DNA from: an uncultured Gammaproteobacteria bacterium | GTDB taxonomy: Bacteria > Patescibacteriota > Patescibacteriia > XYB2-FULL-38-15 | Assembly: GCA_965231095.1 (NCBI GenBank) | Contig: OZ246416.1 | Location: 677,595-741,594 of the forward strand | Length of the DNA stretch: 64,000 bases | Reading direction: 5' to 3' | Shown here: in pieces, positions 4,701 through 16,705 of the stretch | Numbering within the stretch: position 1 is the stretch's first letter | How the letters are laid out: each line of letters opens with the position of its first letter | Position numbers and translations under genes: made by a program | Notes under the pieces: generated by a model | What the model was told of the DNA's origin: nothing | What the model saw: the letters and a program-made list of their open reading frames with translations, nothing else | The model's database searches: none

Positions 4701-5924
4701 ATGTATTGGGCCAACCTCCTCCACATTTACCAGCCGCCCGGCCAAAAGAAAGAAATTACCAAAAAAGTTGCCGCCGAAAGTTATTGGCGGATTGTTGATA
4801 TTTTAAAAAAACATCCTGAGGTGAAAATTAATTTAAACATCAACGCCTCGCTTACTGAACAGCTACCGGCCGCGGGTTTAAAAAAATTAATTGACGAAAT
4901 TACCGCCCTCGCTCGACGCGGCCAGATTGAATTTACCGGCAGCGCCAAATACCATGTCATCTTGGCGCTTTTGCCCGAATCGGAAATTATCCGCCAAATT
5001 AAACTTAACGACAAAACAAATAAAAAATTCTTCGGCGCGCTCTGGCAACCAACCGGATTTTTTATTCCCGAACTTTGCTACAGCGAAAAAGTAGCGCGCA
5101 CCGTGAAAAAACTCGGATTTAAATGGATTGTTTTAGACGAAGTCGCTTACAACGGAAAATTTAATAAAATAAAATTTGATAAACTTTATAAAATCAAGAA
5201 CGTCGGCCTGCCGGTTTTTTTCCGAAACACAAAAATTTCTAATCTTTTTTTCACGGCTGAAGCAAAAACCACGGCTGACTTTTTTAAAATTTTAAAAGAA
5301 GACGGACGCTCGGAAAAATATCTGCCTACGGCCATGGACGGCGAAAATCTTGGCCATCACCAGAAAGAAATGGACAAACTTTACGCCGATCTTTTGGATA
5401 CTGGAAAATTCGAGGCGATAACTTTTTCCGATTTACTTAAAATATATAAGTCATCACAAGAAATCGCCCCCGCTCCTTCCAGCTGGTCGTCGCGAGAAGA
5501 AGACATAAGAAGAAAAGTCTACTACCCGCTTTGGAAAAATCCAAAAAATGAAATCCATCGGCTACAGTGGCAGCTGACAAACCTCGCCATTAAAATCGTC
5601 AATAAAAACTCGGCCGATACAAATTTTAAAAAATCCCGCGCGCTTCTTGACCGGGCGTTACACTCCGATCAATACTGGTGGGCCTCCGCCAACCCCTGGT
5701 GGTCGGTGGAAATTATAGAAAATGGAGGCAACATGTTGCTTAATTCTTTAAAATCTTTAAAAACCTTATCTCCAAAAATTTTACAAAAAGCAGTTTTACT
5801 TAATAAAAAAATCTCGGCCACGGCGCATAATTGGCAAGATACCGGCCGAGCGAAAAAAATAAAAGAAGCGTATTTAGCCGGAGAACCCTACGAGCGTTAC
5901 TTTGCCGGCAAAGTGATAAAATAG
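4701..5924 (+). CDS. Glycoside hydrolase family 57 protein (alpha-glucan branching enzyme/amylase-like), paralog 1
   Basis: MYWANLLHIYQPP start, TAMDGENLGHH and ALHSDQYWWAS motifs resembling GH57 regions IV/V; tandem with paralog. Confidence 0.65.
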   Translation: MYWANLLHIYQPPGQKKEITKKVAAESYWRIVDILKKHPEVKINLNINASLTEQLPAAGLKKLIDEITALARRGQIEFTGSAKYHVILALLPESEIIRQIKLNDKTNKKFFGALWQPTGFFIPELCYSEKVARTVKKLGFKWIVLDEVAYNGKFNKIKFDKLYKIKNVGLPVFFRNTKISNLFFTAEAKTTADFFKILKEDGRSEKYLPTAMDGENLGHHQKEMDKLYADLLDTGKFEAITFSDLLKIYKSSQEIAPAPSSWSSREEDIRRKVYYPLWKNPKNEIHRLQWQLTNLAIKIVNKNSADTNFKKSRALLDRALHSDQYWWASANPWWSVEIIENGGNMLLNSLKSLKTLSPKILQKAVLLNKKISATAHNWQDTGRAKKIKEAYLAGEPYERYFAGKVIK

Positions 5925-5974
5925 TTTTTAATTGTAATTTTGCCTTTTGAATTTTAAATTTTGAATTTACTATT

Positions 5975-7462
5975 ATGTATTGGGCCAACTTTTTACACAT
6001 TTACCAGCCGCCGAACCAAATGCCGGATATTTTGGAAAGAATTGCTAATGAAAGCTATAGAAAATTATTTCGCGGCTTGCTCGCGAACCCCAAGGCGAAA
6101 TTAACTTTAAACATCAACGCGGGATTGACCGAGCAATTGGACAAGTATGGCTATCACGATATTATCCGCGATATAAAAAAACTCGCGGAGCGCGGCCAGA
6201 TTGAATTTACCGAAAGCGCCAAGTACCATCCTTTTATGCCGCTCACCCCTTGGGAAGAAAACGCGCGGCAAATAAAACTAAATAACGAAACTAATAAATT
6301 TTATTTTGGAAAAATTTATAAACCCCTTGGATTTTTTCCGCCGGAAATGGCCTACAGCCGAAAAATCGCCGATCTTGTTGCCTCGCTGGGCTACCACTTT
6401 ATGGTTGCCGATGAAATTTCCTACAACGGAAAAACCGAACAACTATCTTACGACAAAGCTTATACTATCAAAGGTCTCGGTAATTTTAAAATTTTTTTCC
6501 GTGATCGACGGGTGAGCAATCTCGTAATGTCGGCCATCGTGCGCACGGGAAAATCTCTCCTTGAAGCGGTGGGCGAAGAAAAAAATAAAAACAGATATTT
6601 ACTGACGGCCATGGACGGAGAAACTTTTGGCCATCACCGCCCGGGATTAGATCAGCTGCTTTTTGAAATTTTATCCTCACCAAAATTTAGGAAAATCACT
6701 CTCTCGGAAATCGCCGAACATTTTAAAACCCAAGAAATTGTTGACCCGATTGATTCAACCTGGGCTTCCTCTGAAGAGGACATCGGGCGCGGCGTGCAGT
6801 TTCTTTCCTGGAACGATCCGGAAAATCCCATCCACGCCTGGCAATGGGAATTTACCGGTTTTGTTTTAAAAATCGTGGAAAATTTGGACAAGAAAAAAGC
6901 TTATTACAAAATCGCCCGCGCCAAAATGGATGAAGCGCTCCACTCCTGCCAATATTGGTGGGCGAGCGGAAAACCGTGGTGGTCGCTTGAGATGATTGAG
7001 GGCGGCGCTTGGAAATTGCTTGACGTTCTCTATCAAATTCCGGATGTTTCCCCAAAAAATTTGGAAAAAGGAAAAGATTTTTACGGGCGGATTGTTCTCA
7101 AGGCTTTTGAGTGGCAGCGTACCGGCTACATCAGAAAATTGGCGGGCGAGCGCGGGAAAGAGGTAAAAATTCCTTTCAAAAAACGCTCGCTTCTTGCGGG
7201 AAAACCGGAAGTCTACTATGCTTTCATCAAAACTATGGATAAAGAAATGAGCAAGGCCATAAAAAATAAAGAATTTGAAAGAGCCATTCTCTGGCGCGAT
7301 GCCATTCTAAAAATTGAAAATCAAGACGATATTTACGACGCGGTGCATGCCACCGACCTCCTCCGGATGAGCGTACCGGGCGGAGATTTGGAAAAATTAA
7401 TGGATAAATACAAGACGCAATATAAAAAAATGCGCGGCGGCCAGCCGGAACAGCGCGGCTAA
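5975..7462 (+). CDS. Glycoside hydrolase family 57 protein, paralog 2, with C-terminal extension carrying a UVR-like motif
   Basis: MYWANFLHIYQPP, TAMDGETFGHH, ALHSCQYWWAS; C-terminal KNKEFERAILWRDAILKIE resembles UvrB/UvrC UVR helical hairpin. Confidence 0.65.
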   Translation: MYWANFLHIYQPPNQMPDILERIANESYRKLFRGLLANPKAKLTLNINAGLTEQLDKYGYHDIIRDIKKLAERGQIEFTESAKYHPFMPLTPWEENARQIKLNNETNKFYFGKIYKPLGFFPPEMAYSRKIADLVASLGYHFMVADEISYNGKTEQLSYDKAYTIKGLGNFKIFFRDRRVSNLVMSAIVRTGKSLLEAVGEEKNKNRYLLTAMDGETFGHHRPGLDQLLFEILSSPKFRKITLSEIAEHFKTQEIVDPIDSTWASSEEDIGRGVQFLSWNDPENPIHAWQWEFTGFVLKIVENLDKKKAYYKIARAKMDEALHSCQYWWASGKPWWSLEMIEGGAWKLLDVLYQIPDVSPKNLEKGKDFYGRIVLKAFEWQRTGYIRKLAGERGKEVKIPFKKRSLLAGKPEVYYAFIKTMDKEMSKAIKNKEFERAILWRDAILKIENQDDIYDAVHATDLLRMSVPGGDLEKLMDKYKTQYKKMRGGQPEQRG

Positions 7463-7476
7463 TTAAATTTACTAAA

Positions 7477-13434: not shown

Positions 13435-13500
13435 TTAAAACAGGCACTTGATTACATAGCTTGAAAAACTTTTTAATTAAAATTAAATAAAAAAATTAAT

Positions 13501-13575
13501 AGTTTATATAATACCCGTTAGCTGAAATATTAAAAAATTCTTTTCGGCCTTTGCGGGCATTTAATCGGGGCAAAT
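13501..13575 (-). repeat. Inverted-repeat arm (left) of the UvrA-like cassette; contains gttagctgaaatatt core shared with repeats at 1043-1065, 1460-1484 and 15002-15071
   Basis: 13514-13575 is the near-exact reverse complement of 15002-15071 (perfect 16-bp tttaatcggggcaaat/atttgccccgattaaa at the gene boundaries). Confidence 0.7.
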
Positions 13576-13606
13576 TTATTTTTAAAGATTTAGAATTCGG
13601 AAAATT

Positions 13607-14995
13607 ATGAAATACATAACAGTAAAAAATATCACCAAGAATAATCTGAAACGATTTTCAGTTAAAATACCATTGCAAAAACTGGTCGCCATTGTTGGTC
13701 CGAGCGGAAGCGGCAAGTCTACGTTGGTTCATGAAGTGTTATATAACAATTCAATCAAAAAAGAGTGGGATATAAAAAATCTACCGAAAATTGTTGATAT
13801 TCTTGAACAAAAAGTAATTCTTCCAAGGGATTCAAAGTTGAGTCTAGGTGAATTTAACTTTGATAAATTAAAAAAGAAATTATCCGCAATTCATAAGGAA
13901 GATTTGTTGATTGTTGATGAACCCTGTGCTGGATTTTGTGAGAAAGAGCGAAAGACAATTTTGAAAATGTTAAAAGATAAAGTTAAGCAGGGATATTCAA
14001 TAATTGCAGTTGAACATAATAAGGAAATTATTGCTAATGCTGATTATGTAATTGAGCTTGGTCCCGGGGCTGGACGATATGGCGGAAAATTGATTTTTGA
14101 GGGAAATCTAAATGAATTTAAAAAGTCTGGCACAATTACGGCTGAACATGTTTTTAAGGCAAACAAAGACGCGGTAAAGCAAGGAACTTTTGAGAAAGGC
14201 AAAGAAGTTACAATTTCAAAAATATCTGCTGGAAATTTTAAAAATTACAGTTTTACATTTCCGCTCATAAGTATAGTTTGTTTAACTGGCTGTTCTGGTA
14301 GCGGAAAATCAACCTTATTGGATGTCGCTTATCGTGCTTTATTTAAAGGAAAAAATGCTTGGAAAATTAGATTAAAAACGGTTAACGTTAATGGAAAAAC
14401 TAATGTACGTAGGTCGTTTATTGTTCCACAATCTTCGATTGGAGATCATCCATCAAGCACGCTCGCGACCTATGCAAAAGTTTGGGATAACATAAGGGAG
14501 ATTTTTGCGAATGAAAAACTGGCAAAGCAGTTAAGATTAACGAAATCAGATTTCATTATTTCAAAAAGTATTTTGGAATCAAAAAGTGATTTTTCAAAGG
14601 ATGTTTTAAAAGTTTGCTATCAAAGGAAAAATATCAAAGAAGTTGCAAATCTTACGATTGATGAGGCATTAGAAATATTTGAAACTGACACTCTAATAGT
14701 GAGAAAATTGAAATTTTTACAGGAAGTAGGCTTAGGCTATTTGGTGCTTGGACAAAAATCAGGTTCTTTAAGTGGTGGAGAAGCTCAGCGAGTAAGAGTT
14801 GCAAAAATTCTTTCAAAAAAACTTGGCGATAGGTCTGTCTATATTTTTGATACTCCAACCAGAGGATTACATCTCAAAGATATTCCAGTACTAATAGATG
14901 TTTTTAGAAAAATTATAGACAAAAATAATACAATTTTAATAGCAGATAACAGAGAGGAAGTATTTCATTATTGTGACTATCGGATAAATCTTTAA
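13607..14995 (+). CDS. Minimal UvrA-like tandem ABC ATPase (two NBDs, no zinc-finger/UvrB-binding/DNA-binding insertions)
   Basis: Walker A GPSGSGKSTLVHEVLY and CLTGCSGSGKSTLLDVAY (UvrA-style), degenerate signature LSLGE, Walker B LLIVDEP...VEHN...GPGAG; signature LSGGEAQRVRVA and VYIFDTPTRGLHLKD (UvrA C-terminus-like, Glu to Thr); ~31% GC. Confidence 0.7.
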   Translation: MKYITVKNITKNNLKRFSVKIPLQKLVAIVGPSGSGKSTLVHEVLYNNSIKKEWDIKNLPKIVDILEQKVILPRDSKLSLGEFNFDKLKKKLSAIHKEDLLIVDEPCAGFCEKERKTILKMLKDKVKQGYSIIAVEHNKEIIANADYVIELGPGAGRYGGKLIFEGNLNEFKKSGTITAEHVFKANKDAVKQGTFEKGKEVTISKISAGNFKNYSFTFPLISIVCLTGCSGSGKSTLLDVAYRALFKGKNAWKIRLKTVNVNGKTNVRRSFIVPQSSIGDHPSSTLATYAKVWDNIREIFANEKLAKQLRLTKSDFIISKSILESKSDFSKDVLKVCYQRKNIKEVANLTIDEALEIFETDTLIVRKLKFLQEVGLGYLVLGQKSGSLSGGEAQRVRVAKILSKKLGDRSVYIFDTPTRGLHLKDIPVLIDVFRKIIDKNNTILIADNREEVFHYCDYRINL

Positions 14996-15001
14996 AAATG
15001 C

Positions 15002-15153
15002 ATTTGCCCCGATTAAATCTTTTGCCTTTAGGTAAAAGCCGAAAAGAATTTTTTAATACATCAGCTAACAACGAGTATCTGGTTTCGACTTTTTACAAAA
15101 GTCTCCACCCAAATGCTACGCACTTCAGATACTCGTAACGTTAGGCGAAATGA
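15002..15153 (+). repeat. Right inverted-repeat arm of the UvrA-like cassette fused to leader repeat copy B (hairpin stem 15072-15081/15127-15136, nested hairpin gacttttgtaaaaagtc) ending ...aacgttaggcgaaATG
   Basis: Matches 13514-13575 in inverted orientation and copy A (946-1067) in flanks and stem register. Confidence 0.65.
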
Positions 15154-15815
15154 TTCATTTATCACCCACCATGTCAAACACTATCCTTCAAGAAAAAGAC
15201 AGCGTGATTTACGCCAATTGTATGGCGGAATTGAAGGATCGTCTAAACAAAATAGAGTCTTCGCTGGATAAAAATTTTTCATTAGATATTTTTTTACTAG
15301 AATTTATTTGTCTACAATTCAGAAAAATATGCGAACTATTCGCTTTCGGAACTTTGATAGCTAGTAAAGATCTTTACAGACAAGTCAGAAAAGATTTCAG
15401 TAATGATTGGAACTTTGCTAGAATATTAACAACTGTAGAAAAAATTAATCCACGATACTTTCCAAAACCATTAAAATATGAGGGCAACAAAGCCTTTGCC
15501 GTCGTAACAAATGACTTTCTACTTCAAAAAAATATTATAGATATTTACGATGAATGTTCCGACATGATAAATGCCCAAAATCATTTCAAAGATTTGAAAA
15601 ATTTTTATCCAAATAGTGATGAGAAAAGAGATATTTGGCGTAAAAAATTCACAGAATGGAAAGAAAAATTTATTAAATTATTTGACTGCCATACAATTGG
15701 CATAAAGACTGATTTATATACAAAAGTTTTTATCACCTTCATGTATATAAATAATCCGAGCAAAGATATCAATGTTATCGCAGCGGATGTCATTCCAAAG
15801 CCAAAAGATAAATAA
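15150..15815 (+). CDS. Hypothetical protein, AT-rich, partner of UvrA-like ATPase (alternative start 15171)
   Basis: 221-aa ORF directly after repeat copy B; no recognisable motif; composition matches upstream AT-rich gene. Confidence 0.45.
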   Translation: MIHLSPTMSNTILQEKDSVIYANCMAELKDRLNKIESSLDKNFSLDIFLLEFICLQFRKICELFAFGTLIASKDLYRQVRKDFSNDWNFARILTTVEKINPRYFPKPLKYEGNKAFAVVTNDFLLQKNIIDIYDECSDMINAQNHFKDLKNFYPNSDEKRDIWRKKFTEWKEKFIKLFDCHTIGIKTDLYTKVFITFMYINNPSKDINVIAADVIPKPKDK

Positions 15816-15847
15816 ATCACATCTCCTCTTCTCGGACGTTAAATAAA

Positions 15848-16705
15848 GTGGCCAAAATGGAAATCGCTATCCCTTCGCCAGAAAATCTAGAAAAACTAAA
15901 ATCCGCTATCCGAAATGATGGGCCGGAAAATTTTCATGTTCTGGCTGACTTTGATCAAACTTTGACCAAAGCTTTTATCGGCGGGCGGTTCGTGCCATCG
16001 CTTATTTCCGTCTTGCGCGATGGAAGTTATCTAACCGCCGACTACGCAAAAAAATCACATGAACTTTTTAACAAATATCACCCGATAGAAATTGATACTT
16101 CTCTCCCGCCCGAAGTTAAAGACCGGGCAATGGTCCAATGGTGGAAGGAACATTTTGAAATTCTTTTCCAGGCCGGGCTCAAGAGAGGAGACGTTGAATC
16201 AATTGTTAATTCCGGAAAAATAAAATTGCGCGAGGGGCTTTGCGACTTTATCCATTTTCTCGGCAAAAGAAAAATCCCGCTTGTCATCATGTCTTCAAGC
16301 GGCTTGGGCGGCGACGCGCTTGGAATGCTTTTGGAAAAAGAGGGGTGTTCCAACGGTAATACCTTTTTTATCACGAACACTCTTATCTGGGACGACGAAG
16401 GAAAAGCTGTCGGCGTCAAAGAGCCGATAATTCACTCAATGAACAAGGACGAAACCATCCTTAAAAACTTTCCCGCTTTTCAAAAAATAAAAGACAGGAA
16501 AAATGTTTTGCTTTTAGGTAATACAGTTGAAGATGTTGGCATGGCCGCCGGAGTTCCTTACAAAAACCTTTTGAAAATTGGATTTTTAAATGAAAAGGTG
16601 GAAGAAAATCTGGAAGAATTTAAAAAAACTTTTGACGTTGTCTTGACGGGCGATCCGGGAATGGAATATATAAATAATTTATTAAAAGAAATTTTTTCGC
16701 ACTAA
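15848..16705 (+). CDS. HAD-superfamily pyrimidine 5'-nucleotidase-like hydrolase
   Basis: DFDQT (DxDxT) motif I near N-terminus, 285 aa, UMPH-1-like arrangement. Confidence 0.65.
   Translation: MAKMEIAIPSPENLEKLKSAIRNDGPENFHVLADFDQTLTKAFIGGRFVPSLISVLRDGSYLTADYAKKSHELFNKYHPIEIDTSLPPEVKDRAMVQWWKEHFEILFQAGLKRGDVESIVNSGKIKLREGLCDFIHFLGKRKIPLVIMSSSGLGGDALGMLLEKEGCSNGNTFFITNTLIWDDEGKAVGVKEPIIHSMNKDETILKNFPAFQKIKDRKNVLLLGNTVEDVGMAAGVPYKNLLKIGFLNEKVEENLEEFKKTFDVVLTGDPGMEYINNLLKEIFSH

Follow-up and report, generated by a model that had tools for sequence, protein, structure and literature searches.

The window analysed here is a 64-kb stretch (64,000 nucleotides) of contig OZ246416.1, from an uncultured bacterium of the Candidate Phyla Radiation (CPR), and the element in question is an AT-rich island that carries the gene for a 462-aa, UvrA-like tandem ATP-binding cassette (ABC) ATPase, followed by a 221-aa open reading frame (ORF), orf221. 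It is likely, with a probability of roughly 0.8, that this island is a short array of integron-type gene cassettes without an adjacent integrase, resembling the clusters of attC sites lacking integron-integrases (CALINs), in which a minimal UvrA (mini-UvrA) is the cargo of the first cassette and the long inverted repeat around its gene is an extended form of the R'/R'' pairing of the recombination site. The array is inserted between a PBP1A gene and the UMPH-1/VIT1/dnaN-dnaA origin region. The anatomy of the cassette can be given with high confidence, and is as follows (positions are those of the window).

13518-15140, plus strand: complete ATPase gene cassette, 1623 nt, GC content 32.7%, both limits taken from homology breaks in other contexts
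13517-13523, plus strand: R' core GTTAGCT, with the cassette boundary between G13517 and T13518
13517-13592, plus strand: left arm of the inverted repeat and 5' untranslated part of the cassette, with weaker pairing as far as 13615
13607-14995, plus strand: cargo gene for the 462-aa minimal UvrA-like tandem ABC ATPase, identified from motifs, profile hidden Markov models and structure comparison
14985-15069, plus strand: right arm, covering the last three ATPase codons and the stop codon and terminating in R''
15063-15146, plus strand: attC-like site, 84 nt (R1 covariance model, 130 bits, E 1e-29)
15063-15069, plus strand: R'' AGCTAAC, then a 2-nt spacer
15072-15082, plus strand: L'' CGAGTATCTGG, inner stem of the attC-like site
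15087-15103, plus strand: apical hairpin of 7 bp within the attC-like site
15104-15114, plus strand: motif TCCACCCAAAT, between the apical hairpin and L'
15126-15135, plus strand: L' CAGATACTCG, then TAAC
15140-15146, plus strand: R' GTTAGGC, 3' end of the attC-like site
15141-15847, plus strand: second cassette, with orf221 (15150-15815); the array end is degenerate

The boundaries of the cassette are set by its copies in other contexts, of which at least four were found (loci L032, L033, L056 and, in part, L034/35). DNA homology between the window and L032, L033 and L056, whose ATPases share 91-93% protein identity with that of the window, starts at G|TTAGCTGAAAT (13516-13518), and the flanks upstream of this point are unrelated among all four. 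On the right side, homology extends 71 nt past the right arm and stops at AACG|TT; from there the window (with orf221), L032 and L033 each continue differently. In L034/35 the homology stops at the outer end of the right arm, while a decayed copy in Uhrbacteria (L022) still has the 5' end in common from 13518. A clade of ATPases of 54% identity is present in L007, L047 and L048; in L047 the gene is a cassette within a long array, and in L007 and L048 the same ATPase gene stands between matching arms, downstream of a different sequence. At its left end, the R' of the window cassette is a perfect reverse complement of the R'' of the same cassette, and the first seven nucleotides (GTTNNNN) are a perfect reverse complement of the cassette's own R'' in seven of the nine cassettes with both ends defined, where about 0.4% per cassette would be expected by chance with four free positions. 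Complementarity of this kind, at all seven positions, marks integron-type recombination at G|TT; both the crossover point and the pairing of a cassette's first bases with its own R'' are as in integrons.

The second line of evidence is the site at the end of the cassette. Calls of attC-like sites rest on R1, a covariance model built in this analysis from seven sites, rather than on the curated IntegronFinder model. With R1, 15 sites were found at E < 0.01, every one of them in the same orientation as the cassette ORFs. Only two of its matches are in the 64-kb window, the one listed above and a second on the minus strand (1050-951); related sites are present in L047, L026, L032 and L033, and none was found in the ordinary chromosomal loci included in the search (L001-L016). 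An attC site is expected to measure 57-141 nt and to combine RYYYAAC and GTTRRRY cores with an L''/L' stem. The window site has this build, and AAC/GTT (or ATT) cores are present in 14 of the 15 members of the family. RNAalifold recovers the R stem, the L stem and the apical hairpin. In the 15-site alignment, which was fitted to the R1 model, the paired cells amount to 92%, and both-sided (compensatory) changes are seen in 12 of the 19 pairs, against 28-45% paired and at most six compensatory pairs in partner-slid controls. An asymmetric unpaired spacer (2 vs 4 nt) and a recurrent AA/TG mismatch beside R are also visible, and (G/A)AAAT directly follows R' in all 14 clear sites. A cruder scan by regular expression and hairpin was unspecific, with 22 matches against about nine in shuffled sequence, and did expose the site at 951-1050.

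The third line of evidence is the inverted repeat itself, which a preliminary description of this DNA had already reported as long and near-perfect. It consists of an outer block (13517-13552/15034-15069, 36 nt, 92%) and an inner block (13559-13592/14985-15018, 34 nt, 94%), separated by an indel; the gapped complementarity of the arms covers 99/110 nt with 87 matches (z = 33 vs shuffles), weaker pairing reaches 13615/14960, and a 9-nt insertion in the right arm forms a small local hairpin. The same description had placed the cores of the repeat directly against the start and stop codons, which holds only in part: the right arm overlaps the last three codons and the stop codon, and on the left the strong block stops 15 nt short of the ATG. 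Its view that the repeats bound the pair of genes has to be given up: the right arm comes between the ATPase stop (14995) and the orf221 start (15150), and only the ATPase gene is enclosed. When each arm was folded alone, no local structure was found (z +1.2 and -0.3), so the arms themselves are not terminators or attC sites, and the repeats are not the ordinary terminators that the description had named as a possible refutation. The outer ends of the arms are R' on the left and R'' on the right, so the repeat amounts to the R'/R'' pairing extended inward to the start and stop codons.

This arrangement is common to the cassettes of the related loci. The arms begin at the R box (cassette position 1) in nine of ten cassettes, span 22-121 nt, and are present also in a 123-nt cassette with no ORF. 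The left arm of the window is conserved in L032, L033 and L056, with a decayed copy in L022, and in L047 a different cargo is flanked by arms related to those of the window. A mismatch of GAAAT against GATGT beside R is common to both window cassettes and, as read by eye, to the first cassette of L067. When the cassette ends are joined as in an excised circle, the resulting 279 nt fold as single-stranded DNA into a single hairpin (-76 kcal/mol, z -14.9).

These elements suggest how the array may work. In cassette 1 (13518-15140), the mini-UvrA gene lies between a 5' arm and a 3' arm, followed by the attC-like site; orf221 forms cassette 2, and the cassettes would be cut and joined at G|TT inside GTTRRRY-GAAAT cores. 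In the excised, circular, single-stranded form, both arms and the attC core would make one long hairpin that presents the crossover site; the arms, we infer, serve in this way to stabilise or present the site of recombination. The likely enzyme would be a compact Xer/IntI-like tyrosine recombinase, such as heads arrays of this kind in related contigs, and the cargo is an accessory, horizontally spread member of a minimal UvrA family of CPR bacteria and DPANN archaea.

The window holds a second array of the same build, and both begin from a common lead.

13489-13516, plus strand: array lead AAAAAAATTAATAGTTTATATAATACCC, with a TATAAT box that ends 5 nt before the crossover G
1508-946, minus strand: second array, with lead (1508-1481), R' GTTAGCT (1480-1474) and GTTAGCTGAAAT head
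1452-1078, minus strand: cargo of the second array, an ORF for a 124-aa membrane protein, with 22-nt arms
1050-951, minus strand: attC-like site of the second array (R1 115 bits, E 7e-26), then GTTAGGCGAAAT
939 to beyond the window start, minus strand: further ORF after GTTAGGCGAAAT, at least 312 aa, no Pfam match

The 28-nt lead recurs before the second array with four mismatches. Its 16-nt core, TAGTTTATATAATACC, has exactly two occurrences in the window and is absent from all other loci examined. Judging from its sequence, the shared TATAAT-containing lead is a candidate promoter or attI-like array head.

Longer arrays are found in related loci. L047 has a run of at least six attC-like sites between small ORFs, and its cargos include a cupredoxin-like protein with a membrane protein, a 111-aa protein, a GNAT-like protein, units with no ORF and the 54%-identical ATPase. 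In L067 (2864-9048), a 271-aa tyrosine recombinase is encoded on the minus strand, starting about 100 nt from AACGA|GTTAGCTGAAAT, and five attC-like sites follow the array head on the plus strand, divergent to the recombinase. In L032 (1-497), the ATPase cassette is preceded, at a distance of about 120 nt, by a recombinase fragment 44% identical to that of L067. Against solved structures, the L067 recombinase matches XerA (5hxy, E 6e-41) and IntI4 (2a3v, E 8e-41) about equally. With moderate confidence, we infer that recombinases of this type act on the attC-like sites. As a separate observation, several cassettes of the array in L026 (4270-4540, 5455-5720, 9260-9330) open with a structured, GC-rich element (GTTCGGCAAAATTCGCTCGCTCGCGCTCGCGG...) about 250 nt long.

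Several results weigh against reading the island as an integron-type array. The window ORFs tested include no recombinase gene, which is why the window arrays are called CALIN-like; the assembly of a complete integron, with an adjacent intI that encodes the IntI-specific domain, an attI site and a Pc promoter, was not seen in the window. The left flank of the array is no attC, and no attC of its own was detected for orf221 even with filters off, the best candidate (15801-15856) scoring 10.5 bits at E 0.38. The L067 recombinase scores 216.6 bits on NF040815 (XerA/integron integrase), just below the cutoff of 220, and 203 bits on TIGR02249 (integron integrase), where the cutoff is 265 and the match falls into two stretches that skip profile positions ~182-250, which we take to be the place of the IntI-specific domain. 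A recombinase lacking this domain could be a housekeeping Xer protein that merely lies near arrays, and a homologue with 57% identity in L002 has no array adjacent to it. Many members of the ATPase family look like resident chromosomal genes, with ordinary terminators and without arms, and in L067 the ATPase gene lies about 1 kb past the last detected attC, again without arms.

The base composition and the surroundings of the island are consistent with gene transfer. The two ORFs of the preliminary description are present as claimed, both on the plus strand, and the island is as AT-rich and compositionally odd as it had stated: GC content is 32.5% in the ATPase ORF and 30.2% in orf221, against 47% in the upstream PBP1A-like gene, 44% in the downstream genes and 43.8% in the window. 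Its suggestion of mobility is borne out by the ATPase cassette in other contexts. The surroundings form the replication-origin region, with PBP1A, the island, a UMPH-1 nucleotidase and VIT1 followed on the opposite strand by dnaN, dnaA, yidD, rnpA and rpmH. Compared with Campbellbacteria, the ATPase is 78% identical (78-89% overall in this comparison), while DnaN, DnaA and PBP1A are only 30-45% identical. This contrast in identity, the GC deficit and the cassette structure together indicate recent transfer of the ATPase gene among CPR lineages.

Two minor observations concern ATPase genes elsewhere. The gene adjoins a PBP1A gene in two lineages besides the window, namely Campbellbacteria (L004/L042, where dnaN is also adjacent) and L041; in L004 the ATPase gene is in the opposite orientation and has no cassette features. 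Coincidence or an insertion hot spot may account for the shared position. In L005, a direct repeat of about 95 nt with a palindrome (5866-5960 and 7378-7470) flanks a 76%-identical homologue and may be another type of attC.

CALINs, integron cassettes and archaeal integrons, including those of Nanoarchaeota, have already been described (PMC9668308; PMC9024848), and the archaeal/DPANN comparison made here follows Ghaly et al. (2022; PMC9668308). A literature search returned no description of integron cassettes, attC sites or CALINs in CPR (Patescibacteria, Parcubacteria). Like integron and CALIN arrays, those described here consist of single-gene units placed head-to-tail in one orientation, with the same cassette in different arrays and a foreign composition. 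Their units end in imperfect hairpin sites of 77-165 nt between ...AAC and GTT... cores, and in relatives the arrays are headed by a divergent tyrosine recombinase. Unlike in integrons, complementarity runs 22-121 nt past the R boxes into both cassette ends, R' is invariably followed by GAAAT, the recombinase that accompanies the arrays has 271 aa and no IntI-specific domain, the host is a CPR bacterium, and the two window arrays, which begin from a common 28-nt lead, have no neighbouring integrase. It is in the long arms, the GAAAT extension and the compact Xer-like recombinase that the arrays differ from the classical integron system. The arrays also share features with Xer/dif modules, such as integrative mobile elements exploiting Xer (IMEX) and the pdif modules of Acinetobacter plasmids, in that the candidate recombinase is equally near XerA and IntI4 and the units are flanked by inversely oriented recombinase core sequences; in contrast to these modules, with their 28-bp double-stranded dif sites, the arrays have long hairpin sites backed by covariation, and their units stand in the order of attC arrays.

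A wider claim can be put forward only tentatively, and the odds lean against it. CPR bacteria (and DPANN archaea) may have a distinct integron-like capture system with long self-complementary ends, GTTRRRY-GAAAT cores and a compact XerA-like recombinase without the IntI domain, whose recurrent cargo, a mini-UvrA with a single active site, would be spreading between CPR classes and possibly across domains. If so, standard integron finders would score such arrays at best as orphan attC clusters. Mechanisms of horizontal transfer in the CPR are poorly known, and what had looked like a defence pair now offers a specific instance, open to testing, of gene flow by cassettes in this group. Were an Xer-like recombinase to drive the arrays, this would bear on the origin of integron integrases from Xer recombinases and would mean that current integron detection misses a class of platform.

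The alternative that survives best is that the arms act in RNA, with a duplex between the 5' and 3' untranslated regions (UTRs) that controls stability, processing by RNase III or translation, the DNA cassette structure being incidental. The left arm begins 5-6 nt after the TATAAT box and could be the entire 5' UTR, the arms extend to the start and stop codons, and the arms of the 54%-identical homologue differ in sequence yet stay complementary. It is nevertheless improbable as the whole explanation, since the arms always start at the R'/R'' recombination cores, occur on the ORF-less 123-nt cassette and around other cargos, and are missing from chromosomal family members that have ordinary terminators. 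Roles of the arms in RNA and in DNA are not mutually exclusive.

A transposon-like passenger that has the repeats as its terminal inverted repeats is very unlikely, whether as a miniature inverted-repeat transposable element or as a mobile insertion cassette, moved in trans by the transposase of an insertion sequence. Long, near-perfect repeats around one non-transposase gene, and a left homology edge at the outer end of the left arm, are what such an element would show, but the right side of the mobile unit goes 71 nt past the arm and takes in the hairpin site. There is no target-site duplication (ACCC vs AACGAG), and neither the repeat cores nor the arms have a further copy anywhere in the 64-kb window. 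The GTT/AAC end cores are found also in cassettes whose arms are very short or bear little likeness to these, and arrays are built from such units one behind the other, head-to-tail.

Equally doubtful is the idea of the preliminary description that the ATPase and orf221 form a two-gene anti-phage or toxin system, an ATPase with its effector. A recombination site separates the two genes, they are adjacent in no other locus, and each is found beside other partners. In L026, a relative of orf221 starts at GTTAGGCAAAATG, directly behind the attC of another cassette, and homology to it begins at window position 15138, at GTTAGGC; because this start matches the start of the L026 cassette, orf221 is the next cassette of the array rather than a partner of the ATPase. 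Only seven homologues of orf221 were found, none of which adjoins an ATPase gene. ATPase relatives at 77-91% identity likewise adjoin unrelated genes, with 89%-identical copies in clearly distinct housekeeping surroundings: that of Falkowbacteria lies between pilin genes and a SPOUT methyltransferase, and the Uhrbacteria copy lies between trmB and a run leading to dnaG and rpoD. When the neighbours of 30 non-redundant ATPase loci were clustered, no partner gene common to the family emerged.

The defence-island context anticipated in the preliminary description was not seen. PADLOC gave a partial match of the ATPase to mad3 (9e-39, residues 330-458 vs profile positions 201-333), far weaker than the match to UvrA and with no mad partners nearby; for orf221 it gave no hit (E 0.035). 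Integron cassettes are known to carry defence genes, and by analogy either cargo may singly have a defence role. The orf221 protein matches phrog_13799 (E 6e-25), and the resemblance of its low-confidence predicted structure to HEPN proteins may be taken as a lead only. Within its coding sequence are nested inverted repeats (15208-15226/15688-15706, 19 nt, 95%; 15265-15281/15595-15611, 17 nt, 100%), which are retained in the 75%-identical homologue in L026 and not in a 56%-identical one in L028.

Inversion of the ATPase gene between the repeats, as a phase-variable segment, is hardly credible: repeats of 76-85 nt do flank the whole gene, the L004 gene does lie in the same dnaN-PBP1A interval in opposite orientation and a Logan contig does break at the left arm, but the orientation of the gene relative to attC is constant in every cassette copy, L004 has no repeats and only 78% identity, and a contig break is expected anyway at a repeat longer than k.

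The cargo of the integron-type cassette is itself unusual. It matches the UvrA structure PDB 6n9l (E 7e-86), and it has the fold of the UvrA superfamily, with tandem ABC nucleotide-binding domains (NBDs) and a UvrA-type signature domain II. It is not a full-length class I UvrA: on TIGR00630 it scores 328 bits, far under the cutoff of 730, and its alignments to UvrA skip residues ~55-485 (zinc modules 1 and 2, the UvrB-binding domain and the insertion domain) as well as the C-terminal zinc-finger segment. The preliminary description was accurate both on the UvrA motifs and on the missing zinc-finger, UvrB-binding and insertion domains, and the situation that it said would speak against its proposal, relatives with this gene as their only uvrA and with uvrB nearby, was not encountered. 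A literature search returned no description of a UvrA derivative of about 460 aa, and nothing specific on UvrA in CPR, on UvrA-like ATPases in defence or on MADS/mad3.

Motifs were compared over 29 family members. NBD1 keeps Walker A, the Q-loop glutamine, the D-E of Walker B and the H-loop histidine, and has the signature LSLGE. In NBD2, Walker A is kept and the LSGGEAQR signature is perfect, but D-[T/I/V/N]-P replaces D-E-P and A-[D/E/S]-N replaces E-H-N, so that every family member compared lacks the Walker B glutamate and H-loop histidine of this domain. In the head-to-tail arrangement of ABC proteins, UvrA included, each ATP site is made of the Walker motifs of one NBD and the signature of the other. 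By sequence, then, ATP site 1 (Walker A/B and H-loop of NBD1 with LSGGE of NBD2) is predicted to be of consensus type, while ATP site 2 (D-[T/I/V/N]-P of NBD2, with no H-loop histidine, and LSLGE of NBD1) appears coherently degenerate. Most likely, and with low confidence, the mini-UvrA would be a UvrB-independent, ATP-gated DNA-binding protein. Compared with class II UvrA (Deinococcus UvrA2, 2vf7), Ecm16 (7sh1) and DrrC, it is about 350 residues shorter, lacks all three zinc modules and the insertion domain, has signature domain I cut to a single LSLGE helix, and has lost the Walker B glutamate and H-loop histidine of NBD2. It is thus a natural 'core-only' UvrA, the closest solved structure being an engineered deletion mutant, and with one degenerate ATP site it is suited to dissection of the UvrA ATPase core without UvrB, zinc fingers or damage-sensing insertions.

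Relatives of the ATPase number in the thousands, mostly of 460-480 aa, and are found in Patescibacteria/CPR (Falkowbacteria, Uhrbacteria, Magasanikbacteria, Campbellbacteria, Wolfebacteria and others) and in DPANN archaea (Nanoarchaeota, Woesearchaeota). Among the top hits of an all-against-library search, the mini form makes up few clusters at 50% identity, the remainder being long or duplicated UvrAs. In two independent lineages, a type-I ABC exporter half-transporter adjoins the mini-UvrA gene (L043 4392-6170; L011 2317-4107; L012 5491 onward; L055 893-2710), the exporters being only 31-33% identical between lineages; this arrangement faintly recalls that of DrrC and DrrAB. Elsewhere in the window (5975-7462), a GH57-family protein has a C-terminal UVR (UvrB/UvrC) motif (PF02151, E 8e-7), with no relation to the cassette.

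The ATPase had no match in a search of IMG/VR, and of seven viral matches to a 16-mer of the attC, six are chance matches. In a contig classed as viral (L059 10672-10813; IMGVR_UViG_3300001336_000172), R1 finds an attC-like site of the same family (93 bits), and the ORF directly downstream of it resembles, by eye, the large subunit of a phage terminase, which hints that phages carry or target attC-like sites.

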